Below, piece after piece: positions 6,876 through 52,252 of a DNA stretch of 64,000 nt (within the stretch, counting starts at the first letter, position 1; each line of letters opens with the position of its first letter). The notes beneath the pieces are model-generated. The model did no database searches. It saw only the letters and a list, made by a program, of their open reading frames with translations, and was not told the DNA's origin. The position numbers and the translations under genes are program-made. Source of the stretch: a virus. The stretch is from IMG/VR virus record IMGVR_UViG_3300020171_000018, positions 21,803 to 85,802 of that record; one strand, 5' to 3'.

Positions 6876-9364
6876 GTGGCGTTCGGGTCTGGGGTGCGGG
6901 TGGCCGTTGCCGACAGACCCGTTGTGCCTATGCTCCCTGTAGACTCGAACGGTACGATTGGCACGCCTGCTGATTCCCTCACCCGGATAATCACCGAGAT
7001 TGCAGTCGTCTGCACGATGTCGTTGGACTCGCTTGCAGCGTCCGCCACGCGGTCCAGGTAGGGCACATAGGCGTCGTCGTCTGTACCATATGCCCTGACC
7101 AGCCTGTTTATCTGGTAGGTGTCAGTCGACACCTGACCAGCGATGGGCGGGCTGATGGTAAGCTCCGTGGCAGTCACCGCCGTCACATAGCTGCTGAGTG
7201 CCCGGGTGACGTTGTACACGATGTCTCCCACCAGCACGGGCTCTGCACCCAGCCAGTTGGCACCCGAGTTCACCATGAGGGTGGTTGTAGTATTTGCTGT
7301 GAGCGTCCCTGCGGAGTTCGTCACCACCGTCAGCACGAATGTGACGCCGCTAAAGCTGGAGAACCGATACCTGTCCTCGATTGCCAGTACCGTGTCAATG
7401 ACGCGGATGGCCGCTCGGTTGATGTCTTTGCCGTCTGGCACATCCAACTGAATGGTTGCGTGTCCGTCCCCATCGTCAGTGATAACGATGTCCAGGTCAC
7501 TCAGGTTGTTGCCCGCCGCCAGGTTGAACGTAGCGTGCTTGTGCTCAGCACCTACTGGGGTCTGCGTGGGGAGCTTGAGGACTGCCCCGCTGGCGTCCAC
7601 CTGGAATACAGCTACGGAGTCTCCAGCCACCAGACCGCCTACCGTGACAGGCACTGTGTTCGGCGGAGCCTGCGTTGAGCCGTCGTCTCCAATCAGGGTG
7701 TAGTTCTGCTTGTCCGCCGTCGCCATAAGCTTGACGTAGACGCCCCTGGCTCCGAACAGCTTGCCTCCTGCAAATGTACCGAAAGCGGCAGCTTTGGGAC
7801 TTGAGATTGCCGTCACAACGGTACAGTTGGCCGCCGTCAACGTCGGGGTAGTAATCTGCTCCGAGGTCTGGAAGGTCCCATCGAGCCGTGTCACCATGAG
7901 GTATCCCGCCGCACCTGAAGCAGTGGCACTGGCCACGACACCCTTTGCACCTGAGGTTCCACCCGTCACGACCTCGCCCACCACAGCGTTGCCCGTCGCA
8001 CCGTTGTAGTCGAGCCGTACCTCGACGCCCTTGTAAAACTGCCCCTGTACTGCTAGGGCTGCACCGGAGTCAATATCCGCTGTGACCCCACGTCGCATCC
8101 TGTACTGGAGCACCTCATAGGTGTCCTTCATCAACTCGGCGCTGCAGTCAATCTCGACGGAGTAAAGGATTGGGCCATTACCGTTGAGCAGGTCACGGCT
8201 GATGCGTCCAAAGGTGATGGTCACATCGGACTGCGGCGCAACAGCAGCATTGATGTTGGTGATGGTGCCTACCGTGGCGACAGCACTGCTGGACTGGCCT
8301 TCGAGTACGTCACCCACAGCTATGTCAAGGTGGCCTAGCTGCATGATGTCCAGCGTGATGGTCGGGTTGCTGCCGGACTTCGCTCGTATGTAGCCAACGA
8401 AGCCCTTGTTGGAAGGCGTCGTTGGGACCTTGATAACCTCACCCACCGTGAACGTCCCACTGGATGAGGTGGTGGTCAACCGCCTCGTGCCATCCGTGTT
8501 GTTGATGTCTGTGGCGGTGGCGAAGGCGATAACGCTGTTACCACCAATCTTGCTGGCCTCAAAGTTGTCGTACACGGTGCCCTCCTTATGGGCAAAGAAC
8601 TGTACGCGGCCAGCGTTTATAGCCTTTCCCGCCTCCTGCGTCGCCACTAGGATGTCTATCTGCCCCAGTGAGCCGAGGGCCCCGTTGGTCTCTGTGGCTG
8701 ATGCATGTTCTGGAAGCACCCCGATAGGGATGCCTACTGCCGACCTGTCCTGTACGGCGTACAGTTTGGTATCGGGAGTTCCCGCTACCTGGGCGTGAAT
8801 CGTGCCCAGGGTGCTGAACTGTGACCAGAAGTTCTCGCCGGTGGCGGAGCCGCCAGTTTGGAATGTGGCGGTGAAGTTGCCCGCAGCTACGGAGTTGCTG
8901 ACCGTATATGCCTCGGTTGCGTTGTTGAAGGTGCCGGTAAGTACTCTGATATAGACGACACCTATCTCCGAGCCATACCGCTGGTCCCAGCCCAGAATCT
9001 TTCCAGTGGCGGTCGATGTAGTACCCGTGATGGTCTCACCACGGTCATCGGCCTCGAACATCACGCCCGCGCCAGAGGCGTTATAGGAGATTGCTCGAAT
9101 CACCCCGGTCGCCCATCCACTGGTCGTGAGAGAGCCTGTCTTGATGTACTGAAGCGAGTCCGAGTCTATAAACCAGCCATTTATCATGGTGAACTGAGTC
9201 GGTGTCTGTGCCGACATGGGTACCTGGTCATCCATCTGGTTCAGGGCATCGAACAGGTCCTGCAACTCTGAGTACATCGTCTGGGCACTGTAAATGTCCG
9301 TTCCAGTCAGGTGCCGTATGATTTTGTTGGCATAGTCAATGCTGAAGTCGCTTAGGAATGCCAT
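6872..9364 (-). CDS. Large virion spike/receptor-binding-like protein
   Basis: 830 aa, G/T/A-rich; repeated GExITG(G/T)TSxAxG-type units. Confidence 0.6.
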   Translation of the reverse strand: MAFLSDFSIDYANKIIRHLTGTDIYSAQTMYSELQDLFDALNQMDDQVPMSAQTPTQFTMINGWFIDSDSLQYIKTGSLTTSGWATGVIRAISYNASGAGVMFEADDRGETITGTTSTATGKILGWDQRYGSEIGVVYIRVLTGTFNNATEAYTVSNSVAAGNFTATFQTGGSATGENFWSQFSTLGTIHAQVAGTPDTKLYAVQDRSAVGIPIGVLPEHASATETNGALGSLGQIDILVATQEAGKAINAGRVQFFAHKEGTVYDNFEASKIGGNSVIAFATATDINNTDGTRRLTTTSSSGTFTVGEVIKVPTTPSNKGFVGYIRAKSGSNPTITLDIMQLGHLDIAVGDVLEGQSSSAVATVGTITNINAAVAPQSDVTITFGRISRDLLNGNGPILYSVEIDCSAELMKDTYEVLQYRMRRGVTADIDSGAALAVQGQFYKGVEVRLDYNGATGNAVVGEVVTGGTSGAKGVVASATASGAAGYLMVTRLDGTFQTSEQITTPTLTAANCTVVTAISSPKAAAFGTFAGGKLFGARGVYVKLMATADKQNYTLIGDDGSTQAPPNTVPVTVGGLVAGDSVAVFQVDASGAVLKLPTQTPVGAEHKHATFNLAAGNNLSDLDIVITDDGDGHATIQLDVPDGKDINRAAIRVIDTVLAIEDRYRFSSFSGVTFVLTVVTNSAGTLTANTTTTLMVNSGANWLGAEPVLVGDIVYNVTRALSSYVTAVTATELTISPPIAGQVSTDTYQINRLVRAYGTDDDAYVPYLDRVADAASESNDIVQTTAISVIIRVRESAGVPIVPFESTGSIGTTGLSATATRTPDPNAT

Positions 9365-9379
9365 GTCGTCCTCCTCATG

Positions 9380-11116
9380 CTACAGATTTGGGTCTACCGA
9401 TAATGCTATGGTTGAAACCAGTCCCGTTGCAGGAATCGTTGAAGGAGTCGAAATGGGAACGTATCGGGTGCTTCCTACGGATGTCTTGCGCACCCGTATT
9501 GTAACGGCCTTTGGGGTTGAGCCAGGATAGCTTCCAGAGGCTATCCCGTCTGGCGCCACACTCAGTGTATTCATGTACTCATCGTTGGTCGTTGCGTCGT
9601 AGACGCCTACCCGTGCGTCTATCACTGCCACTGCGCCTTGGTCAACGATGGTCAGGGTAATATCCACTGAAGAAGAGAAGGTCATTGTGCCCGCGCCAGC
9701 GTTCTCTGCGGTCAGCCCTGTTGTGCCCCCAACAATGGCAACAACAGTGTTGCTGGCCCCCTCATAGCGTACAGCCAGAGCGACCGTTCCAAACGTGAGG
9801 TTGGTGAACGTCAGGGTAGGCGAGGGGGTACTCTCCACCACGATGGAGTGAAAGGCAGGGTTCACAAACAGCGAACTCTGGCAGTTTGTGCTGTTGTCCC
9901 ACTTCACTGCGCCGTCCAATGTCCCAACAATCGAGTTCAGTATGTTGCAGTTGCGGACTTTGGCTGCCCCTAGGTAGACACGTCCACAGGCATCGAACGT
10001 GGTGCCGAATATCTCGTCGCTAACGTCGCAGTTAGTGAAGTCAATGGCGTTGGCTTCGTCCGCCCGCTCACAGTTCTTGAAGGTTGTAGCATAGAGGTCA
10101 AAGTCCTCCACCGCAGCGGTCCTGGTAAGACGCCACCCCTGCCGTGTAGACCCTGAGTTGATTTCGGGGTTCGCCGCCACGGAGAAACTCGGCCCGCTGC
10201 GTCCTCGGTCAGTACCCACAGCCACGCCAAACGTAACCACCGTATCACCCGATGGAGTCGTGGCATTGCCCACCACATCAAGTCCCCAGTAGCACAGCCC
10301 CGCTGCGTCCTCGTCGGGAACCGCCTTGACCCTGCTGGTGCCGTTGTAGTACATGGGAGTTTCCCAGACAAGGTTTTCTGCCTGACTGGAGAAGGTCAAG
10401 CCTGCAGCCGCAACGGCGTCGCCCAGCACAAACTTACACCTACAGAAGAAGGTGCCTGCCTTTTCAATAATCATGCCGTAGCGTCGGCTCTTGGTACCCC
10501 AGTCCCAGTCCGCTATCTCCTTGAAGCCCGCACCTGCAACCGCCACGGTGCCGGATACCCGTATCTCACCACGCCCATAGCATATCTGGTCTATGGCGAA
10601 GTTCTGACCTTTGGCGGTGCCAGTCGTTGTGATTGTCGCTCCAAAGTACTGAATGCTGGAAAGGGTCAGTCCAGCGCCACCGTAGGTGGAACGTGTCTGA
10701 CTTGGGTCAATCACGTACATCACCCAACCATCACTATCAGGAATACCATAGTCAGAGCCACCCACGTAATACTCGTTATAATCAGTGGTAGTAGTACCAA
10801 GGCGAATGGAGAGGCCACCAAGCGCAAGAGTTTGGATTAGCTTTGGCGTGTTGCAGCGCAGCCACATGAAGATGAGCATCTTGTAGGCTGCTCCACCTGA
10901 GGCGAAGTTGAGTCCCGACCCCCTGTTGTACCACGCCCCCTTTGTGACTGCACCCGATACCGCTTTTGAGATACAACCAGCACCAGACCCAGCCGTCCGC
11001 TGCACCCAAGTGTCAGTTTCATCCACTATTGAAGTAGTGCCAATTTGAATCCACACTGACCCACCGGCATCGGCATCGTTCAGCACCGTTAGGTCTGTGC
11101 TTATTGCGAGTGTCAT
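9380..11116 (-). CDS. Virion protein (lectin-like N-terminus, beta-helix-like centre, Ig-like C-terminus)
   Basis: 578 aa beta-rich; xTFxNC/xTFDAC-type repeats. Confidence 0.5.
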   Translation of the reverse strand: MTLAISTDLTVLNDADAGGSVWIQIGTTSIVDETDTWVQRTAGSGAGCISKAVSGAVTKGAWYNRGSGLNFASGGAAYKMLIFMWLRCNTPKLIQTLALGGLSIRLGTTTTDYNEYYVGGSDYGIPDSDGWVMYVIDPSQTRSTYGGAGLTLSSIQYFGATITTTGTAKGQNFAIDQICYGRGEIRVSGTVAVAGAGFKEIADWDWGTKSRRYGMIIEKAGTFFCRCKFVLGDAVAAAGLTFSSQAENLVWETPMYYNGTSRVKAVPDEDAAGLCYWGLDVVGNATTPSGDTVVTFGVAVGTDRGRSGPSFSVAANPEINSGSTRQGWRLTRTAAVEDFDLYATTFKNCERADEANAIDFTNCDVSDEIFGTTFDACGRVYLGAAKVRNCNILNSIVGTLDGAVKWDNSTNCQSSLFVNPAFHSIVVESTPSPTLTFTNLTFGTVALAVRYEGASNTVVAIVGGTTGLTAENAGAGTMTFSSSVDITLTIVDQGAVAVIDARVGVYDATTNDEYMNTLSVAPDGIASGSYPGSTPKAVTIRVRKTSVGSTRYVPISTPSTIPATGLVSTIALSVDPNL

Positions 11117-21376: not shown

Positions 21377-22042
21377 TCACCCAACCACGCCCCTAGAAGT
21401 CAACTGAGGGTATCGGTCGCCCCCCTTCACCTTGGCTATGAACAGCCCCTTGCCGTGCTCGTCTGTGAATACCCAATACTCGGTGCCGACCTTCCCACTT
21501 CCCAAGTCGCCCACCTCATGCTCCCAAAGGCTGCCAGCCCGTTTGGAGGGCTTCCAAGATTCGTAAACAAAGGAGCGAAGCCTCCCAATTACGATGCCCC
21601 TCTTGGGGTAGTCCTCTATCTCCACCTCTACCAGCTCTTGGGGCTCGGTCTCGTGGAACTCCCGGTACTTCTTGACCAGCTCAGGGGGGAGATTGGATAC
21701 ATCCATTTGGGCCTGAGGGTTCTTCTGCACGTTGTCTCGTGGGTTCCCTTGTACCCCCCTTGGCAGTATCTCTAGCAGGTTGATTTCCGTTCGGTAGTAC
21801 CGTCTCTTGGGGGTTATGACCTCTACTTGACCCGTGAAGGGAATCCACACTCCCTCCCCAGTGCTAAGGCCATGCTCTCCCTTGTTGGTGACTGTGAATA
21901 TCCTCGATGGGGGCATAGTGACCACTGGGTACTGCCCCTCCAACAGGGCAAAGGAGACGTTCTTGACCCTATCCCCCACTCTGACTTTACTAGCTGGAAC
22001 CAACTTCCCACTCACTATGACACCCCTCAAAATACCAGCCAT
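21377..22042 (-). CDS. Two-domain protein joined by an NP-NP linker
   Basis: GNPRDNVQKNP separates an SH3-like part from a YREFH...WEHE domain. Confidence 0.65.
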   Translation of the reverse strand: MAGILRGVIVSGKLVPASKVRVGDRVKNVSFALLEGQYPVVTMPPSRIFTVTNKGEHGLSTGEGVWIPFTGQVEVITPKRRYYRTEINLLEILPRGVQGNPRDNVQKNPQAQMDVSNLPPELVKKYREFHETEPQELVEVEIEDYPKRGIVIGRLRSFVYESWKPSKRAGSLWEHEVGDLGSGKVGTEYWVFTDEHGKGLFIAKVKGGDRYPQLTSRGVVG

Positions 22043-26400: not shown

Positions 26401-29037
26401 TTATCTCCAATCTAGCTTCTCCATTTCGCCCCACCTGTACCCCACCTTGGCATCGCACGGCGTCGGCACGTCCAACTTCACCGCCGACTCCATGATTGGC
26501 ACAACCAGTCCCGCCAGCTCCTCCACCTCCCAGGCCGGGCACTCAAACACCAACTCGTCATGCACCTGTAGAATCATCCTGCCCTGCAACCTAGCCTTTT
26601 GGAGTGCCCAGTCAATCCGTATCATGGCTATCTTGAGGATGTCTGCGGCTGTCCCTTGGACCGGCATGTTGACGGCCATCCTGATGCCCTCAGCCCGCTC
26701 CTTCCTGATTGGCGAGTAGGCCTCAGGCACCCACCTCACCCGATTGAACATATCTTTGACCCACCCCCTCTCTAGTATCTCAGCCTCTTTGGTCTTCATG
26801 TAGGCCCTGACACCTTGATACGTCTCAAACCAGGTGTTCAGGTGCCCCTGCCAGTCCTCCACGCCGATGTTCCTGTCCTGCTTGTAAAGGCCCATCGCCG
26901 AGATGCCATAAATGACGCCGAAGTTGACCCTCTTGGCGGCCTTCCTCTCATCGGGGGTTATCTGCTGGGCCAACTTCTCGTACATATAGGTTGCGGTCTC
27001 GGCGTGAAGGTCCCGCCCCTCCCTGAACGCACGCAGCATTACAGGGTCTTGGCTGAGATGGGCCATGCAGCGCATCTCTATCTGTGAGGCGTCCACCGAT
27101 AGCAGCACCCAGTCCCAGGATGGGGCCGTAAACACCCTACGCACCACCAACCCGTACCCCTCTACAGGTACATTCTGTACATTTGGAGCCTCGGATGAGA
27201 GGCGCCCAGTCGCCGTCCGGGTCTGCTTGTAGGTGGTTCGTATTCTGCCATCTGGATGCACAATCCTGGGGTACACGTCTATGTACGTCCCCTTGAGCTT
27301 CTCTATCTCCCTGTGCTCCATGATGGCATCCACAACCGGGTGCCGGCCCTTCAGCTCCTCCAGCACATCATCGTCCGTGGAGATGCCACCAGTCGGGGTT
27401 CGCTTGGTGGGCTTCAACCCTAATCTGTCGAACAGGAGCCACGCCACCTGCTGGGGAGAAGATACGTTGAAGGGTGTCCCTGCCTCCCACCACACCTGGC
27501 CCAGGGCGTCCTCCAACTTCTCAGCCATCTCCTTGGCTATCCGCTCGTTCTCAACCCTGTCCCAATACAACCCCTGAGCTGTCATGCGGTTCAGTATGGG
27601 CACTAGGGGCAACTCTATATCCCACAGCAGTGACCCCATATCCCAATGCTTGATTTGGCGTTCGAGCACCGGCCTGAGCTGGTGAGTTGCGATTGCGTCC
27701 ATCGCTGAGTAGCGAACCCACTTGGCCTCAGTGGGCACATCAGCGATGGTCGGGTGAGGCACCGTTAGCCCCGTGGCCCGCTCTATGGCCTCCCTCTCCA
27801 CCGCCTCAAGGTTCCCTACCAGTTTGAATCCGTCCGCCCCCTGCCCCACCTTCTTGGCCATAGATCCCAGCTTCCTCTCTAGGGGCTGGTGCTTGTGCGT
27901 CTTTAGCAGGATGTCGGTCTTGCCTTTGTTCCACTCCCACCTGTCCTCTGGGGGCATGGGGCCGTACTTGTGCTTGGCGGCCTCCAAGAGGTAGCGTTTG
28001 ACCTTCTCGGCCCCATACTGGCCCACTAGGTCATCGTAGCGGGCCATCTTCAAGCCAAGGTCACGGTAGGCCAACTCTTTCAGGGCCTGACTCTCCTTCC
28101 CCAAAAGGTAGGCCGCAATCATGGAGTCAAACACGGTCTTGTCAACCTTGATACTGACCGACTCAAGGACTCTTACATCGTAAAGTGCGTTGTGCATCAC
28201 CACCACCAGCCCGGGCCTGTTCAGGGCCTCAGTTAGCCTCTTGGCCCCGTCTGCCCCCAGGTCATCCCGATGCACCACGTACCCAGTCCGACCATCCGTG
28301 CTAAATGACATGCAGAACAGGCCCCGCTCGTCTGATTCTGTGTCCACCGCCACACTAGGGGACTGGCTGATGGCCTCCACCACTGTGTCCACACTTACTC
28401 TGATGGTCACGAGGTCTGGTCTGGAGTTGTCCCTGCTGAACCTCAGGCCATCCGCCAGAAACGCCCCTAGTGCCTTGAAGTCATCCATCACCAGCTTCCT
28501 GAACCGGGCCTGCCTGAGTCCCGCCGCCGGGTGATAGCATGGGAACACGACCGTCCTATGCCCCGCCACCATGACCTCCTTGGGCAGTCCATGAGTCTGG
28601 CTGACTGTGAGAGTGGGATCATTTAGCACCCAGCGAATCGCAGCGGCACCTACGGGGATGATGAGCTTGGGGCGCATGGCGCGAATCTCATCAACTAGCC
28701 AAAGAGTGGTGCAGATGGAGACCGCTTCTTCTGGGGGGGTGCCACTCCCCGTGGCGCTTGACAGGCAATTTATAGTATTAGTGAGCAGCACCCCTGTTCT
28801 GCCCAGCCCCGCTATCTCCAACAACTCATTCAGGTATCTCCCGGCGTTTCCAATGAATGGTATGCCCCCCGATTCAGGGTCCGCCTCTTCCTTGCCGGGC
28901 TGCTCCCCAATCAGCATGACCTCTAGCTCATCGTCGGCCCACCAAGGGGGAACAGGGATACCGTGCTTGCCAGCCAGGGAGCAGGAGGCGCAGGAGCGCA
29001 CGCCGTCAGCTATCTGGGAGAGTTGGGTGGAGTTCAC
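26401..29037 (-). CDS. polA: Family A DNA polymerase with N-terminal family-4 uracil-DNA glycosylase domain and 3'-5' exonuclease
   Basis: CASC..IGEQPGKEE...FIG.AG...YHPA; AVDTE, HNALYD; TGRLSS..PNVQN, DASQIEMR, KRVNFGVIYG, QVHDEL. Confidence 0.95.
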   Translation of the reverse strand: MNSTQLSQIADGVRSCASCSLAGKHGIPVPPWWADDELEVMLIGEQPGKEEADPESGGIPFIGNAGRYLNELLEIAGLGRTGVLLTNTINCLSSATGSGTPPEEAVSICTTLWLVDEIRAMRPKLIIPVGAAAIRWVLNDPTLTVSQTHGLPKEVMVAGHRTVVFPCYHPAAGLRQARFRKLVMDDFKALGAFLADGLRFSRDNSRPDLVTIRVSVDTVVEAISQSPSVAVDTESDERGLFCMSFSTDGRTGYVVHRDDLGADGAKRLTEALNRPGLVVVMHNALYDVRVLESVSIKVDKTVFDSMIAAYLLGKESQALKELAYRDLGLKMARYDDLVGQYGAEKVKRYLLEAAKHKYGPMPPEDRWEWNKGKTDILLKTHKHQPLERKLGSMAKKVGQGADGFKLVGNLEAVEREAIERATGLTVPHPTIADVPTEAKWVRYSAMDAIATHQLRPVLERQIKHWDMGSLLWDIELPLVPILNRMTAQGLYWDRVENERIAKEMAEKLEDALGQVWWEAGTPFNVSSPQQVAWLLFDRLGLKPTKRTPTGGISTDDDVLEELKGRHPVVDAIMEHREIEKLKGTYIDVYPRIVHPDGRIRTTYKQTRTATGRLSSEAPNVQNVPVEGYGLVVRRVFTAPSWDWVLLSVDASQIEMRCMAHLSQDPVMLRAFREGRDLHAETATYMYEKLAQQITPDERKAAKRVNFGVIYGISAMGLYKQDRNIGVEDWQGHLNTWFETYQGVRAYMKTKEAEILERGWVKDMFNRVRWVPEAYSPIRKERAEGIRMAVNMPVQGTAADILKIAMIRIDWALQKARLQGRMILQVHDELVFECPAWEVEELAGLVVPIMESAVKLDVPTPCDAKVGYRWGEMEKLDWR

Positions 29038-30767
29038 TGGGCGTTCTTCTGGGCGTCCCTTGGGTCAACCATTCTGTTCGCCGCAATGTCCAGATAGTGC
29101 TGGTCTTGGTCTATCCCGATGCACTCGAACCCCTCCAAGATACAGGCGAGGCGAGTCGTACCTGAGCCTATGAAGGGGTCAAGGACTACGCCATTGGGGG
29201 GAGTGATAAGCCTGCACAGCCACCGCATCAAGTCAAGGGGTTTACAGGTGGGGTGATCCGCCTTGATGCCTGTCCCCCCTAGCCCGTATTCCCGTTCAGA
29301 GCGCGAAGCCTTAGAGGTATAGAAGAACCTGCTAACAGGCCCGCTATCCCCGTAGTTGCGAATCAGCTCGCGCCTACTGCCATCTGGATGATCTGTGCGC
29401 CCCTCCATACGCCGCCAAGCATTTAGAGTACCTGAACCGTCTGTGATGCGGAATGAGCCGCCTTTGCGCTCCCCTGCTTGCTCGTCCAGTAATTGGGCAG
29501 CCCCTTCATCTAGCAGCAGGTTGGCGGGCCAGCGGCCCTCTGTACTCAACTCACCACTGCTAGTGCGGGACTTGGTGTGCAGAATCGGGTTCGCCCGCCT
29601 ATCCGACTCTATCGGATGGAGAAGAGGTTTTGACCCAGGGATGCGACATGCCCCAATGTTCAACCCGCCCACACTCCATCGAAGGACGTTCTGGGCCACT
29701 GTTGGCTCCGACAGGGGCTTGCGAACTAGGATAATTGGCTCATAGCTGGGTTTAAGAGCGACGTTCCATCCACGCCAGACGGACAATGTTCCCAATCCCG
29801 GCCCGGAAGCAAGCACGGGAACAAAAGCACCTGGGATGGTGCTCAAACTCAAGCTTCCTACGCTCAAACCGTTTACCGCAAGACAAGCAGAATACCATGA
29901 CCCATTTACTTGGATGCCTGATTGGGGGGTGAAAGTCTCTTGTGTGAGCAGCCCAATCAAGCAGGATAAGGTTTTCAGGTCGGTTGTCATCTCGTTGGTG
30001 ATTCCCATGATGGACGTGCTCGTTCGGCTGCAATCGCCGTTGGATGATGCCTTCCATGATGACATCGTGTTCAAGGCGATAGTCACCATTGGGGCATCTG
30101 ACCGCGATATAGCCATCACTACGCTTGAACCGTCCGCCCTTCCAATTTCCATTAGCAACGCCTCGGCGTCCCCTGGCCGGATTAGAGCAAGGGCGGCTGC
30201 AATAGGTTCCTTCACCTCTTCGGATTTGAGACAAAAAAACTCGGAACGTTGTACCACATGCGGGACATTGGCGCTCAACAGACATTTTTCTACCTCCTCT
30301 CGGAGATAGTTTACCACATTCAGACCTTTCGGGAACCCAGTTCCGAAAAGATACATAAGACAGTCCCTCACCTCAAACCCAGCGTCCTCAAGAGCGCACA
30401 TGAGCCTGTGATGGGTTCGAGTCCCTCCGAACACCAAGGCATGACCCCCGGGCTTGAGGACTCGCAGGGCTTCAACGGCCCAGGTCTTGTGCCACTCTTG
30501 GGCAGACAAGCCAGCATGATAGCGCGGCTTTGCACCACCAGCACCGAACCAGGTCTTCCCACTAATCCCTGGTATGCCCTCCTTACCATCTTTAGGCAAA
30601 CGCCAATCGCCCGCTAGTTTGTCCCACTCTTTGCCCATGAACTCCAATCCATACGGGGGATCAGTCACGATTGCATCCACCGAGCTCTCTGCCATCTCAG
30701 CCATGACAACCCTACAGTCCCCCAGATACAGGGTGGTTGTCAAGTCCTCGTAGTACGGTGCTCTCAT
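29034..30767 (-). CDS. Beta-class N6A/N4C DNA methyltransferase with an in-frame ~180-codon insertion
   Basis: TDPPY, HPTCKP, VLDPFIGSGTT. Confidence 0.9.
   Translation of the reverse strand: MRAPYYEDLTTTLYLGDCRVVMAEMAESSVDAIVTDPPYGLEFMGKEWDKLAGDWRLPKDGKEGIPGISGKTWFGAGGAKPRYHAGLSAQEWHKTWAVEALRVLKPGGHALVFGGTRTHHRLMCALEDAGFEVRDCLMYLFGTGFPKGLNVVNYLREEVEKCLLSANVPHVVQRSEFFCLKSEEVKEPIAAALALIRPGDAEALLMEIGRADGSSVVMAISRSDAPMVTIALNTMSSWKASSNGDCSRTSTSIMGITNEMTTDLKTLSCLIGLLTQETFTPQSGIQVNGSWYSACLAVNGLSVGSLSLSTIPGAFVPVLASGPGLGTLSVWRGWNVALKPSYEPIILVRKPLSEPTVAQNVLRWSVGGLNIGACRIPGSKPLLHPIESDRRANPILHTKSRTSSGELSTEGRWPANLLLDEGAAQLLDEQAGERKGGSFRITDGSGTLNAWRRMEGRTDHPDGSRRELIRNYGDSGPVSRFFYTSKASRSEREYGLGGTGIKADHPTCKPLDLMRWLCRLITPPNGVVLDPFIGSGTTRLACILEGFECIGIDQDQHYLDIAANRMVDPRDAQKNAQ
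29752..30285 (-). CDS. HNH endonuclease with Zn fingers, nested out of frame inside the MTase gene
   Basis: NWKGG...GYI...EH.VIME...EHVHHGNHQRDDNRPENL; own GGAGGT RBS 6 nt before ATG. Confidence 0.85.
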   Translation of the reverse strand: MSVERQCPACGTTFRVFLSQIRRGEGTYCSRPCSNPARGRRGVANGNWKGGRFKRSDGYIAVRCPNGDYRLEHDVIMEGIIQRRLQPNEHVHHGNHQRDDNRPENLILLDWAAHTRDFHPPIRHPSKWVMVFCLSCGKRFERRKLEFEHHPRCFCSRACFRAGIGNIVRLAWMERRS

Positions 30768-31025
30768 TTAGTAGCCGCTGCCCGTTGTGAGCACATAGGT
30801 AAAGAAAGCGCTGCCCATTCCCCGACGCAACCTTGCCCGGATTCTGTTGTAGCCCGCCCCCATGTCCACCTGCAACTGCGGAACAGTGGTCGCCCCGCAC
30901 TTATCACAGGTCAGGGTCTTGGGGAACCCCCTTACCCTTTGACTCAGCGCATCGGTGCCGCAGTACCAGCACATTGGACTGACTCTATGGGTAGTCGGTG
31001 TCCATCGGACGTTTATCATACCCAT
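30768..31025 (-). CDS. Zn-ribbon protein
   Basis: CWYC...CDKC; AGGAGG RBS. Confidence 0.6.
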   Translation of the reverse strand: MGMINVRWTPTTHRVSPMCWYCGTDALSQRVRGFPKTLTCDKCGATTVPQLQVDMGAGYNRIRARLRRGMGSAFFTYVLTTGSGY

Positions 31026-31073
31026 TGAACCCTCCTCCTACGATGCTCTATAGCGCTTTCTTGTCCGTAATCT

Positions 31074-31709
31074 CTACTGTCCTATCACCAAGAGAGCAGG
31101 ATCAAGCACGGCCCCCTGCTCCTTATTGGCCTTTTCGCCCTCATTGCCAATCTGCGTCTTCAGGTTGTGCCAAATACGGAGTTCCTCGCCATGTACCCAG
31201 CACGTAGCCAACATGCTGACAGCAGCGCCGTACATGAATCCAGTAATGCCCTCAAGGTCGGCTTCGTGAGACACCTCTTTAGCAATATCCACCAACTTGG
31301 TGCCTGTGGCCATGCGGGCTTCCATAAGGTTGGCCCAGCGTGCTGCATACCTCACACAAGCAGCACCATATGGATCCTTGTTGAACTTAACCCAGGTATT
31401 CCACTTGGTAACGTTGGTGACAGTGAACGGCTTGATGCCCTCAGCGGCGGCAGCTTCGGCACGGCGTTGCGCTTCTGCGCGCTCGGCAAGCACTCGCTGG
31501 CCCTCAGGTGAGGCTTCCCACCTCTGATGGCGGCGGTTCACCTCCGCGAAGTATTCGTTGACCATGAGCAGGGGGTCACTATCGGGGTTGGCTGTAATCG
31601 ACACGTCGTTGAATGTGGTCGTTACTACCCTGCGGCTCTCAGATGCCCGCTTTGCCATGCGCCGTGTGACCTGTTCTATGGTTTCACCAACCATCGGCTC
31701 GTCCTTCAT
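31074..31709 (-). CDS. Conserved phage hypothetical protein
   Basis: GITGFMYGAAV..L..CW.HGEEL..WHN motif. Confidence 0.65.
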   Translation of the reverse strand: MKDEPMVGETIEQVTRRMAKRASESRRVVTTTFNDVSITANPDSDPLLMVNEYFAEVNRRHQRWEASPEGQRVLAERAEAQRRAEAAAAEGIKPFTVTNVTKWNTWVKFNKDPYGAACVRYAARWANLMEARMATGTKLVDIAKEVSHEADLEGITGFMYGAAVSMLATCWVHGEELRIWHNLKTQIGNEGEKANKEQGAVLDPALLVIGQ

Positions 31710-34289: not shown

Positions 34290-35036
34290 TTACTCTCCTG
34301 TCAGTATCTTGTCAGATTCCTCCACCAGTACCGCCCACCCCTCCTCCACACTCAGCCCCACCCCTAGCCTATCGCACACCCCCTTCACCGGGCACCTCGG
34401 ACAGAACCTCGTTTTATCCACTGTCTGTGGCGGAATCGGCCCCTCAGCCGCCATCGCCCTCTCCACCACATCCCTGCCCGACACAATGGTCCGCCAATGC
34501 TCCTCCAACTCCCTAGGGGTAAAACTCACCCTGTACCTGTCTGGCCCCCTTGGAGCTGGCGGCGCATAGTTGCCGTTGACCCAGAGCACCGCTAGCCCCG
34601 CCTCTCCTTGAATGTACTCAGGCCTCAGCCTCACCATGTAGAGGTAGGCTCCAATTTGCACGAACCACTCCCAATGGGCTTCTGGGCCTTTGTTGCTCGA
34701 TGTCCAGGTTGCCTTGGCCTCCCAGATTCTCCCACCCTCCACCCAGTCGGGAGTGCCCAGAATGCCGTCCAACACGAGCCCTGGGTGCCTTGTAGTCCCC
34801 TCTGGGGCAGTGGGGGCCAGCAGGTTCTCCCAAGCCTCTCCCACACCGAACAGGGTCAGGGTCTCTCGGGAGATGTTGTACTGACCCATGACTCGGATTA
34901 TGAATGTGCGCCTGAGACACACAATAAAATCCGAAATGTGCGGGTCTGGCCTGGGGTTAGCTATGATTCCCCCAGTCTGCCCAGGTTGCCCCTGTTCCCC
35001 TGCTGTTCCTACTGCCCCAAAGGGTTCTATCTTCAC
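34290..35036 (-). CDS. Solo Cas4-like PD-(D/E)XK exonuclease
   Basis: SDF..CLR, GTPD, EAK, Q...Y, CPRCPVKGVC. Confidence 0.8.
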   Translation of the reverse strand: MKIEPFGAVGTAGEQGQPGQTGGIIANPRPDPHISDFIVCLRRTFIIRVMGQYNISRETLTLFGVGEAWENLLAPTAPEGTTRHPGLVLDGILGTPDWVEGGRIWEAKATWTSSNKGPEAHWEWFVQIGAYLYMVRLRPEYIQGEAGLAVLWVNGNYAPPAPRGPDRYRVSFTPRELEEHWRTIVSGRDVVERAMAAEGPIPPQTVDKTRFCPRCPVKGVCDRLGVGLSVEEGWAVLVEESDKILTGE

Positions 35037-35066
35037 ATCAAGCCTTTCACCGAACTGGAGCTGGGT

Positions 35067-35864
35067 TTATGGTGTGCTCAGATTCCCCTCAGTCTCCACC
35101 AGCAGCCCGGCCTCCACCATCGCCCTGAGGCTTCTCATGGCCGTTTGCTTGGTGGCGTTGTCGGCCACCTTGACCTCCGGGTTCGCCTTCTGCAACTCCT
35201 CCAGCTTCCTGCCCATTATCTGGCCGGGCAGCTTGGTTCGGGCGATGGTGCCGCCGTTGATCTTGATGACGGCGTACACCAAGTTGGTGATGTCCTCACT
35301 GATGGCCTGAGGCTCAGCGACCCCCTCAGCAGCCTCTGTACCCGTCGCTGGGGCCGTCGCGGGCTTCCCGCCCTTCTTGTACGCCTGTCCGGGCTTTCCC
35401 ACGAGCCTGGTTGGGAGCAGTATGGTCGGCTGCCGAACAGTCGCCCCATCTTCAGACGCAGACCTGAACCCGGTGGTGGTGGGCTTGCGCTCCACGTAGA
35501 GCTTGTACCCTACCAGCCACTTGAGGTCTGGGGCGTCGGTCTCCTTCTTGGGAATGCCGCAGTTCACGCACTCCCGCAGGAACTGGGCCAGGTTGCTCGT
35601 CTTGACCAGACCATCCCTCGGGGCGTCCTCCACGGTCTGTCTGTCCTCGCTCACCACCCACTCGTCGGGGGCACCGCTGAGCGGGTATATCTGTTCGGCC
35701 TCCTCCGCTGGGGGATCCAAGGGCTTCATTTTGAGGTGGGCCGCCATGACCGTCACTCCCCTGCCAGGGTAAGTGAACGGCTCAAAGCTGTAGCCCGTTA
35801 TCTCGACTACGGACTTGTCCAGTAGCCCTTCTTCTTGCTTTTCTACCGAGAATGTAAAGGCCAT
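35067..35864 (-). CDS. Putative single-stranded DNA-binding protein
   Basis: Position between helicase and exonuclease; beta-rich core with a low-complexity linker. Confidence 0.4.
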   Translation of the reverse strand: MAFTFSVEKQEEGLLDKSVVEITGYSFEPFTYPGRGVTVMAAHLKMKPLDPPAEEAEQIYPLSGAPDEWVVSEDRQTVEDAPRDGLVKTSNLAQFLRECVNCGIPKKETDAPDLKWLVGYKLYVERKPTTTGFRSASEDGATVRQPTILLPTRLVGKPGQAYKKGGKPATAPATGTEAAEGVAEPQAISEDITNLVYAVIKINGGTIARTKLPGQIMGRKLEELQKANPEVKVADNATKQTAMRSLRAMVEAGLLVETEGNLSTP

Positions 35865-50569: not shown

Positions 50570-52252
50570 CTAACCCTCCTTGTTGCTATCATCGTTGCTA
50601 TCATCATCCACCAGAGTAGGCACGATGTCAACCACGGCTGCTACGGGAGCGGGACTCTTGGGCTTGTCTGGGGGCCGCACTACTACCGCAACCCCGCTGC
50701 CCCCGCTGCCCCCATCATCGGGCCCATTCTCTCCGACCCCGCTGATGTCGTCACCCCCACTATCACCCTGAGCCTCCCCAGCCCCCTCTACCCCCGCTCG
50801 ATTCATGCTGTTTTCAACCGCCTTGTAGGTGAGGTCAATCCCCTGTTTGACCGAGGTGAGCCAAGTGGTGCCAGCGGGGGTTATGAGCACGGCAGCAACC
50901 GCAGATACAGTGTCAAGGGCTTTCGCATCCATTGTCGCAGAGGCCAGCACCCTGATAAACGGGTTGTCCAAGAGCTTCTTGACCTCGGACAGCAGCACTC
51001 GGACCTCATCCACGGTGAACTCGTGCAGGATGACCTCGAGCTCACTGAGGCCGGGCTTCTGCGCCTGGAGGTCAGCATAGAGTTTCTGTACAAACTCGGT
51101 GGGCCTGAGAGAGAGGGCGTTCTTGAGCCAGTCCCAGTCGGCGGCCTTGAGCAGCCCCATGAGGTCAGTGCCCTTGAGGCGGGTCTTGAGCTTGTTGAGG
51201 AGTTGAGCCGTGTCCACTGGGGCCTCCTGGGTTGTAGGCTGCATTGTAGGTTGCACGGGTTGGGGTGCCCGTGGTTGGGGCCCTGACTGTGGGGCACCAG
51301 CGCGTTGTGGCTGCCCAGGGCCAAGGGCGGGCTGCTGAGGCGCCCCACCAACTTGGGGCTGGGTCGGAGCGGGCGGCTGCTGGGGTATCAGGGCTGTAAG
51401 CCTGGCAACTAGTGGCTCTAGTTGCTGTGTACGTGCTAACTCCATTACGAGGTCTATCAGGCTAGTCTTGTGCGTGTCCTCCGAATCGCCCGTACCCGTT
51501 CGCCGCACAAAGCCATACTTTTCAGCCCGCGCTATAGCCTTGTCCAACTTGTCCAGTGGGTCTTCATCCTCCTCGTCACCTTCCTCCTTGGGGGGTTTTA
51601 TGTTAAACGCCTTGTAGAGTCTGGCCGTGGCTACCTTGTCCCGTATAGCAGGGTTGCTGTCCAACATGGCAAGGGCGTCGTCAGTGGCACGCTCATCCAG
51701 ACGTTCTTGAAAGGTCTTGGGCTTCTCGGCCTCCTTTTTTCGGGCCTCTCGGATAGCCTCATCCGGGGTCTGCCACTTGGGGGCGCCGGGAAACTTGTAC
51801 CCAATCACAGGCCCGGTGTAGGCGGCGCTCTTGGCATAGATTACATACTCGCCCCCGCCGAACTGCGGGACCCAGTGCTGCTCGATGTCCTCCCGGCTGG
51901 GCATGTCGGAGACGTACTCCCCAATTGTGACCAAGGAGACGCTGCCAAGTCGAACAGGTTTTCTAACCTCGAACTTGGGCACGGGGAAGGCTTCACTGCG
52001 GGAGCGGCGAATGCGCTCTATTAGGCGAATGTTGTTGAGAACCTTGCGGTTCAGCTCCCAGTTGAAGTCGTCACCACTATTGACTACATACGGGAGGGAG
52101 CGGTAGGGGGCGAAGCGATCCCCCGAACCCTCCGGGGCGGCACCATCTTCGGATTCGTCCAGTTCGTCGGGGTAGAAATCGTCGCCGGGCTTGATGAGAC
52201 GGACGTGTTTGCCACGGGAGAAGAGTTTTAGAGGGTTGAGTGAGATACCCAT
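50570..52252 (-). CDS. Large helical protein with Q/P-rich linker
   Basis: 560 aa; AGGAGGT RBS; upstream of the ATPase. Confidence 0.7.
   Translation of the reverse strand: MGISLNPLKLFSRGKHVRLIKPGDDFYPDELDESEDGAAPEGSGDRFAPYRSLPYVVNSGDDFNWELNRKVLNNIRLIERIRRSRSEAFPVPKFEVRKPVRLGSVSLVTIGEYVSDMPSREDIEQHWVPQFGGGEYVIYAKSAAYTGPVIGYKFPGAPKWQTPDEAIREARKKEAEKPKTFQERLDERATDDALAMLDSNPAIRDKVATARLYKAFNIKPPKEEGDEEDEDPLDKLDKAIARAEKYGFVRRTGTGDSEDTHKTSLIDLVMELARTQQLEPLVARLTALIPQQPPAPTQPQVGGAPQQPALGPGQPQRAGAPQSGPQPRAPQPVQPTMQPTTQEAPVDTAQLLNKLKTRLKGTDLMGLLKAADWDWLKNALSLRPTEFVQKLYADLQAQKPGLSELEVILHEFTVDEVRVLLSEVKKLLDNPFIRVLASATMDAKALDTVSAVAAVLITPAGTTWLTSVKQGIDLTYKAVENSMNRAGVEGAGEAQGDSGGDDISGVGENGPDDGGSGGSGVAVVVRPPDKPKSPAPVAAVVDIVPTLVDDDSNDDSNKEG

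Follow-up and report, generated by a model that had tools for sequence, protein, structure and literature searches.

The window considered here is a stretch of 64,000 nucleotides (nt) of viral DNA (positions 21,803 to 85,802 of IMG/VR record IMGVR_UViG_3300020171_000018), drawn from a complete 85.8-kb phage record with terminal repeats that represents an uncultivated groundwater phage, and the element in question is a gene for an HNH endonuclease nested, in another reading frame, within a DNA methylase gene. The methylase open reading frame (ORF; 29034..30767, minus strand) encodes a beta-class DNA methyltransferase of 577 residues, insert included, and matches PF01555 with an E-value of 1.8e-30. 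The HNH ORF (29752..30285, minus strand; 177 codons and a TAA stop) lies wholly within it on the same strand and in the third frame, being offset by +2 from the methylase frame; counted from the HNH ORF, the methylase frame is +1. An earlier note, made from the letters of this DNA, had described just such a 177-residue HNH protein in a shifted frame between the methylase sequences GFPKG and WRGWNVALKP, with its own ribosome-binding site (RBS) and with the methylase frame open throughout. That observation is confirmed: both ORFs are present on the minus strand, and the 577-residue ORF contains no stop. The Shine-Dalgarno (SD) sequence, GGAGG at 30293..30297 (minus strand), is separated by a 7-nt spacer from the HNH ATG (30283-30285), GAGGAGGTAGAAAA standing immediately 5' of this ATG at 30285; in the methylase frame the GGAGG stretch falls within the codons of R-E-E-V. 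The whole 85.8-kb record holds one copy of the HNH gene.

The methylase is divided by the insert into two recognizable parts. The N-terminal part (residues 1-149; 30321..30767, minus strand) runs from DPPY (motif IV, residues 36-39, nt 30651-30662) up to GFPKGL and carries the residues D36 P37 P38 Y39 and G144 F145 P146 K147, which are invariant in the alignments. The C-terminal part (residues 331-577; 29037..29777, minus strand) comprises WRGWNVALKPSYEPIILVRKP, a variable middle region and motif I, DPFIGSGTT (nt 29154-29177), with K339 P340 E343 P344 R349 K350 P351 and F532 G534 S535 T538 invariant. Outside the insert, all of the PF01555 family motifs are intact in the alignments. Motif IV (DPPY) precedes motif I (FxGxG) and the Rossmann core resembles those of CcrM and M.RsrI, an arrangement that places the protein among the beta-class N6-adenine/N4-cytosine enzymes; in the AlphaFold2 (AF2) model the core has a predicted local distance difference test score (pLDDT) above 90, and the best fold matches are CcrM (6pbd, E 1.6e-8), M.BceJIV, and M.RsrI. 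The host gene is predicted to be a phage orphan beta-class DNA methylase.

Between these parts, the methylase-frame translation departs from the family alignment after GFPKGL (residues 144-149) and resumes at WRGWNVALKP (residues 331-340). The intervening insert is about 543 nt long (29778..30320, minus strand), and its methylase-frame translation is a passenger peptide without stops, residues 150-330. At its 3' end the two coding sequences are interlocked: the last nine or so HNH codons overlap the methylase motif WRGWNVALK, and the TAA that ends the HNH ORF is formed within CTT AAA, which encodes the Leu-Lys of the conserved ALKP. Comparison with insertion-free methylases, which the earlier note had proposed as a check, proved informative, as the sisters have a variable linker of about 55-60 residues (SLDVSKAIDK...WQGW) at the place of the insert, and some natural alleles, such as P0098, have almost no linker. 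In the AF2 model of the insert-bearing methylase, residues 148-221 (nt ~30105-30326; a helix and several strands) reach pLDDT values of 64-82 and residues 228-340 only 30-50; the higher values may merely reflect conservation imposed by the HNH frame, or may hint at structure.

An insert of this kind could be removed by an unrecognized intron or intein, in which case the open frame would be incidental. HNH-bearing introns are common in phages. Atypical phage introns also exist, such as that of BAKA (cited in PMC11855218). No ends of either type had been evident in the earlier note, and the dedicated checks were likewise negative. An Rfam scan of 28800-31100 on both strands gave no match at E<=1, and no room is left for a ribozyme core because the 534-nt ORF fills the insert almost completely. 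Pfam detects no Hint or intein domain in the methylase-frame insert, and intein splice residues are absent, the insert running from near N150 to near V330, before W331, with neither a Cys/Ser start nor a His-Asn end. An intron, moreover, needs no open host frame, yet the frame is open across lineages, as set out below, and the authors who described a homologous element obtained the same negative result (PMC11855218, sections 3.1-3.5). Cryptic splicing is regarded as highly improbable.

The nested protein has the hallmarks of a phage HNH nuclease flanked by zinc ribbons. Across 14 aligned HNH sequences, an N-terminal zinc ribbon (30187..30267, minus strand; weak Pfam Zn_ribbon matches) is marked by invariant C7, C10, C29, and C33, a catalytic core (29929..30072, minus strand) by E72, H73, H92, H93, D100, N101, N105, H114, and H119, and a C-terminal zinc ribbon (29809..29889, minus strand), whose profile matches FCS/MYM-type zinc fingers, by C133, C136, C155, and C159. 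HNH_3 (PF13392) is matched in all 14 aligned relatives (best E 5e-13). The AF2 model of the HNH protein has a pLDDT of 84; a profile search of Protein Data Bank sequences with the HNH matched only the MYM/FCS zinc finger.

Substitutions between related pairs fall on the HNH codon positions in the order third, first, second (counts for positions 1/2/3 of 40/24/58 in L018/L019 and 55/37/78 in L010/L074), and the HNH protein is less diverged than the peptide read from the same DNA in the methylase frame (0.22 versus 0.30 and 0.36 versus 0.58 in related pairs). This codon-position pattern, the lower protein divergence, the invariant ligands, and the HNH_3 matches together identify the nuclease as the maintained gene; the HNH frame is under purifying selection and is the constrained frame of the two, and the methylase-frame translation of the insert evolves like a passenger, the absence of stops being its only clear constraint. 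The HNH is an imported, old fold, and the methylase-frame translation is the new reading. The description of the HNH gene as "overprinted" in the earlier note is to that extent slightly off.

The openness of the methylase frame was assessed by comparing relatives. Viral, metagenome, and genome contigs were searched with the HNH frame, independently of gene calling, and 19 distinct loci were retained in which a full-length or near-full-length HNH relative occurs together with a PF01555 methylase. Full-length HNH relatives at 40-61% identity are all in or beside a PF01555 methylase gene, and at the nested relatives the methylase frame is again +1 relative to the HNH. It is stop-free in 14 of the 19 loci, over 148-239 HNH codons and at GC contents of 0.31-0.57, where the +2 frame of the same stretches contains 6-31 stops. 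Sixty-eight non-nested HNH relatives served as a control; their +1 frame contains 4.0 stops per 100 codons, and none of the 42 with a GC content below 0.60 is stop-free there. At 40-60% HNH identity, some ten lineages share the stop-free methylase frame. These comparisons indicate that the open methylase frame is kept by selection, and they provide firmer support for selection on an open host frame than was earlier in print.

The closest described counterpart is the 'ShiLan domain', a 202-residue insert in mycobacteriophage methylases that is stop-free in the methylase frame (Arsenault, Gosselin and Gogarten, Genes 2025, PMC11855218, following Gosselin et al., 2023, PMC9957025). In ShiLan gp65, a 195-residue HNH with a zinc finger on either side is concealed in the third frame of the insert; its start codon is a GTG located 18 nt from the beginning of the insert, and it ends in TAAC. 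The domain has no intron or intein features, is modeled by AlphaFold as a loop, and has a disjunct distribution, and since no RBS was found for its HNH, leaderless initiation was proposed (PMC11855218). Elsewhere in the literature, such elements are mentioned only by the same group or in papers citing it, all on actinophages. The window HNH shares 51% identity with its hidden counterpart in ShiLan (E 4e-43) and is 50-52% identical over 159 residues to those of ShiLan, Mantra, Totinger, Pollywog, MISSy, Murica, Starcevich, OwlsT2W, Bipolar, and Filuzino. In the phage collection, all HNH matches at 44% identity or more lie inside genes annotated as methylase. One of these belongs to the cultured Cylindrospermopsis phage Cr-LKS3 (L108, OM373202.1, 965-2815), a carrier that is not an actinophage, whose 'DNA methylase' g59 (616 residues, no internal stop) contains, in its third frame and at the ShiLan-type site, an unannotated HNH of 44% identity.

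The likenesses between the window element and that of ShiLan extend from the host gene to the details of the termination signal. Both reside in PF01555 genes (the window methylase is homologous to gp65, with 42% identity in the N-terminal part), and both have an HNH at a frame offset of 2, with a central HNH region and a zinc finger on each side, a stop-free methylase frame, no detected intron or intein signature, and a patchy distribution. In both, the HNH TAA spans an xxT AAx codon pair located three codons upstream of the (Y/F)EP in an EPIxxxRKP stretch. The differences concern position, start, end, and host. The ShiLan order is ...GWGTALKP, then the insert SYEPVCVAVKP...HNH...GRN, then TAFEPIVVARKP, so that its insert follows the motif and opens with an 11-residue copy of the downstream sequence; that of the window, in contrast, precedes the motif, directly after GFPKGL, without duplication and in place of the variable linker. 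The window HNH starts with ATG behind a strong GGAGG, unlike the GTG of ShiLan with no detectable RBS, ends with a TAA within CTT AAA rather than with TAAC, and is carried by an uncultivated groundwater phage rather than an actinophage. The window locus has the ShiLan-like layout, not new in kind, and is a new non-actinophage member that differs in site and start signal.

Two insertion sites can be distinguished, and they flank a single conserved methylase motif. At site A, that of the window, GFPK(S/G)L immediately precedes the cassette and a single G(W/F)(G/N)xxLKP follows it; the carriers are the window, L010, and L074, and the proteins P0002, P0004, P0006, P0007, P0008, P0010, P0012, P0015, P0017, P0054, P0060, P0087, and P0114, the hidden HNH of P0002, P0004, P0007, P0010, P0017, P0060, P0114, and others being read from methylase-frame similarity alone. 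Site B, the ShiLan type, is occupied in L012-14, L016, L018-26, and Cr-LKS3 and in the proteins P0036, P0050, P0061, P0074, P0113, and P0118. Among the best methylase relatives, 20 proteins bear the insert, and 13 of these, counting that of the window, have it at site A. The linker is present in the insert-free sisters P0071 (of P0002) and P0081 (of P0010), and the site-A alleles are without it. The HNH tree does not resolve the site-A and site-B nucleases as separate clades. Start signals also vary among relatives: L022 has a strong SD and L010 has AGGAG, and the AT-rich relatives have none. Because both sites abut the conserved GWGTALKP-coding stretch, this stretch is the probable recognition sequence of the nuclease.

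The distribution of the insert was examined on a methylase tree of the 120 best homologues, built from an alignment stripped of the insert columns. To account for the 20 rows with the insert, a minimum of 12 gains or losses is required, and well-supported branches force 7 of these; with shuffled labels the mean is 18.7 changes, and none of 500 shuffles was as low as 12. The insert is therefore clustered but clearly polyphyletic. The insert-free P0071 and P0081 pair with the insert-bearing P0002 and P0010 at 98-100% support. Such a combination of clustering and polyphyly is what a homing element that is also inherited vertically to some degree should show. Public runs containing the stretch comprise groundwater-metagenome DNA only, and an identical insert with its flanks, with zero differences, occurs in a second, independent groundwater study.

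This distribution bears on the second reading offered in the earlier note, a nested restriction-modification pair. In its fuller form, the HNH would serve the phage, for instance by cleaving host or competitor DNA or by aiding in packaging, and the carrier methylase would protect the phage DNA, the two forming a domesticated restriction-modification-like module. Some HNH nucleases are indeed restriction enzymes or packaging factors. These roles are discussed as well in PMC11855218 (section 4.2), and both the tight association of the HNH lineage with methylase genes and the purifying selection on the HNH agree with them. The existence of close sister methylases that lack the HNH, however, breaks the co-inheritance looked for in a restriction-modification pair and, with the scatter of the insert on the tree, fits a mobile parasite better than a fixed pair. 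The HNH_3 type, the likeness to I-HmuI, and the two zinc ribbons further recall phage homing enzymes. L015, L001-3, and L075-77 represent the same DNA, and in this group (~2298-4435 of L001) a 52%-identical HNH follows a PF01555 N-half ending ...ALKPAHEIIVCGMKPTA, the PF01555 C-half is missing, and a gene for a different methylase, of the MT-A70 type, lies downstream of the HNH, which stands beside a truncated methylase remnant; the +1 frame of this HNH is still open over about 170 of 209 codons. The domesticated pair is accordingly considered improbable, and the nested restriction-modification reading of the earlier note is not upheld. Elsewhere, L093 (433-2770) has an insert-free PF01555 methylase with a 38%-identical HNH about 700 nt downstream, a layout that recalls the free-standing HNH beside a methylase in phages Tiff81 and Sashimi (PMC11855218).

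The reading favored here is the other one in the earlier note, that of a homing endonuclease which would spare its host gene by dual coding, and it fits all of the sequence evidence, namely the recurrent open frame, purifying selection on the HNH, the scattered insert, and the want of intron or intein features. The element is very probably a ShiLan-like mobile cassette, in which an HNH homing endonuclease gene occupies a permissive linker of the methylase by dual coding and without splicing. The cassette would be a homing endonuclease gene of the free-standing HNH type lodged in that linker. Ribosomes starting at the methylase ATG would read through it in the +1 frame to give the 577-residue methylase, in which some 180 passenger residues would replace the variable linker between GFPK and GWGTALKP, and ribosomes starting at the internal GGAGG-ATG would give the 177-residue HNH with a zinc ribbon on each side. 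As selection removes stops from the methylase frame, the host gene would be kept whole without RNA or protein splicing. During co-infection, the HNH would be expected to cut insert-free methylase alleles near the GWGTALKP-coding stretch, and repair from the invaded allele would copy the cassette into the cut one. What the sequences show is the layout of the locus, its homology to ShiLan, a methylase frame free of stops in several lineages, purifying selection acting on the HNH frame, and a patchy occurrence; methylase activity with the insert, expression of and cutting by the HNH, its target site, and homing are inferred.

A variant of this scheme would give the passenger peptide more to do. 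It could be a working part of the methylase, because it stands in the place of the linker, site A is the commoner site, and its first ~70 residues fold at moderate AF2 confidence. The two frames would then be under true double constraint, the SD-driven internal start would set the nuclease dose, and the frame would be held open possibly also for coupling to the downstream polymerase gene. This variant is thought unlikely.

Several observations weigh against the homing cassette and some of them speak for another possibility, that insertion inactivated the methylase and the open frame is due to chance or recent history. The identification of the nuclease from the window sequence itself is borderline, the HNH_3 score being 23.7 bits against a curated cut-off of 24.8, and although I-HmuI (1u3e) is the top Foldseek match of the HNH model, the match is weak (E 0.08), nothing being found at E<=0.001. 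The chance of about 2e-4 that the earlier note gave for an open frame is of the same order as an estimate from codon usage, since with the HNH protein fixed and synonymous codons drawn from phage usage, 5.7 stops are expected in the methylase frame and the probability of none is 8.5e-4; codon shuffling within the HNH ORF, however, gives only P = 0.084. Within-ORF shuffling is a weak null because the codon set has already been shaped by stop avoidance. Junk alternative-frame open runs of 141-174 codons, rich in Pro, Ser, and Arg, also occur inside other long ORFs of the window (7548-8069, 50884-51387, and 9973-10395, minus strand; 34885-35307, plus strand) and form the background to any such estimate. 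Given the weak shuffle result and these runs, the single locus is only moderately significant, and it is the comparison across relatives, rather than the window by itself, that is decisive for the open frame.

The comparison has its own exceptions. Stops in the methylase frame of homologues, which the earlier note had named as telling against dual coding, are found in L016 (one, near the HNH start) and L017 (near the contig end), and the frame of L011 is shifted upstream; read-through is therefore not obligatory, though all three could be decaying alleles or assembly errors. In L027, a short contig, the HNH sits in the methylase frame. Finally, neither the joints nor an insert-free allele of the window phage was found in four groundwater DNA runs, and the case for mobility therefore rests on distant relatives. 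The broken frames and the junk runs would suit a dead host gene, and the methylase is probably dispensable, as has been argued for ShiLan relatives (PMC11855218). A dead gene would nevertheless hardly keep a stop-free frame in about ten lineages when the controls accumulate 4 stops per 100 codons, nor would it have all methylase motifs outside the insert intact. Inactivation of the host gene is judged very unlikely, and the dual-coding cassette is retained.

In some phages, HNH homing endonuclease genes split their host gene. Free-standing HNH homing endonucleases, T4 mobE (PMC2790892), and I-HmuI are of the same HNH_3 / beta-beta-alpha-metal type as the window HNH and share with it extra DNA-binding modules and presumed break-repair homing, but their genes lie in introns or between genes, whereas the window HNH is inside a continuous host ORF. 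In the Pacc40 gp60 helicase-methylase (PMC11855218, section 3.6), too, a nuclease-like ORF is nested out of frame in a methylase gene that stays uninterrupted, though not at the ShiLan site; by its description it is set apart from the window locus by both the methylase family and the HNH-like ORF. Inteins with an out-of-frame or antisense homing endonuclease (bioRxiv 10.1101/2025.01.02.630785) also have an endonuclease read from another frame of a host-translated stretch. Their host-frame product self-splices, however, and as the window insert has no splicing domain, its passenger peptide should stay in the methylase.

The known refuges of homing endonuclease genes are introns, inteins, and the spaces between genes, and frame-shifted nesting without splicing, the host gene reading the nuclease DNA in its own frame as a harmless loop, amounts to a third mode of existence. 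The layout was recognized only in 2025 and only in mycobacteriophages, and the idea of homing by dual coding is not new here, having already been published for the homologous element of ShiLan (PMC11855218). The present comparison finds the layout to be widespread in environmental phages, from groundwater and other metagenomes, and in one cultured cyanophage, Cr-LKS3. The ordinary RBS in at least some copies bears on the published question of how the hidden gene is translated. In every record inspected only the methylase is annotated, the nested nucleases being missed by gene callers.

Other features of the relatives and of the neighborhood were also noted. L105 (Totinger gp66) has, in addition, an in-frame LAGLIDADG-type stretch near its N-terminus (residues ~60-200), which is the 'lone LAGLIDADG' insertion of PMC11855218, and the methylase homologue P0053 also matches PF00961. 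No phage in the collection has a DNA polymerase that reaches 30% identity with the one encoded here. The methylase gene is closely abutted by its neighbors: its TGA stop overlaps, in the sequence GTGA (29034-29037, minus strand), with the GTG given as the start of the DNA polymerase ORF downstream, and an upstream ORF of 85 residues (30768-31025) ends right at the methylase ATG (30765-30770, minus strand). The methylase frame might also be kept open for the sake of translational coupling to the polymerase. A promoter scan gave weak consensus matches only, and a terminator scan of the locus found none. Two genes upstream of the methylase, an ORF of 211 residues (31074-31709, minus strand) matches PF25186, Tad4, a type I Thoeris inhibitor (E 9.6e-32), and is likely an anti-defense gene in the same operon as the methylase. 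Antisense to the HNH lies a stop-free ORF of 157 residues (29836-30309, plus strand), which is probably there by chance, because relatives have 1-8 stops in the corresponding antisense frame.

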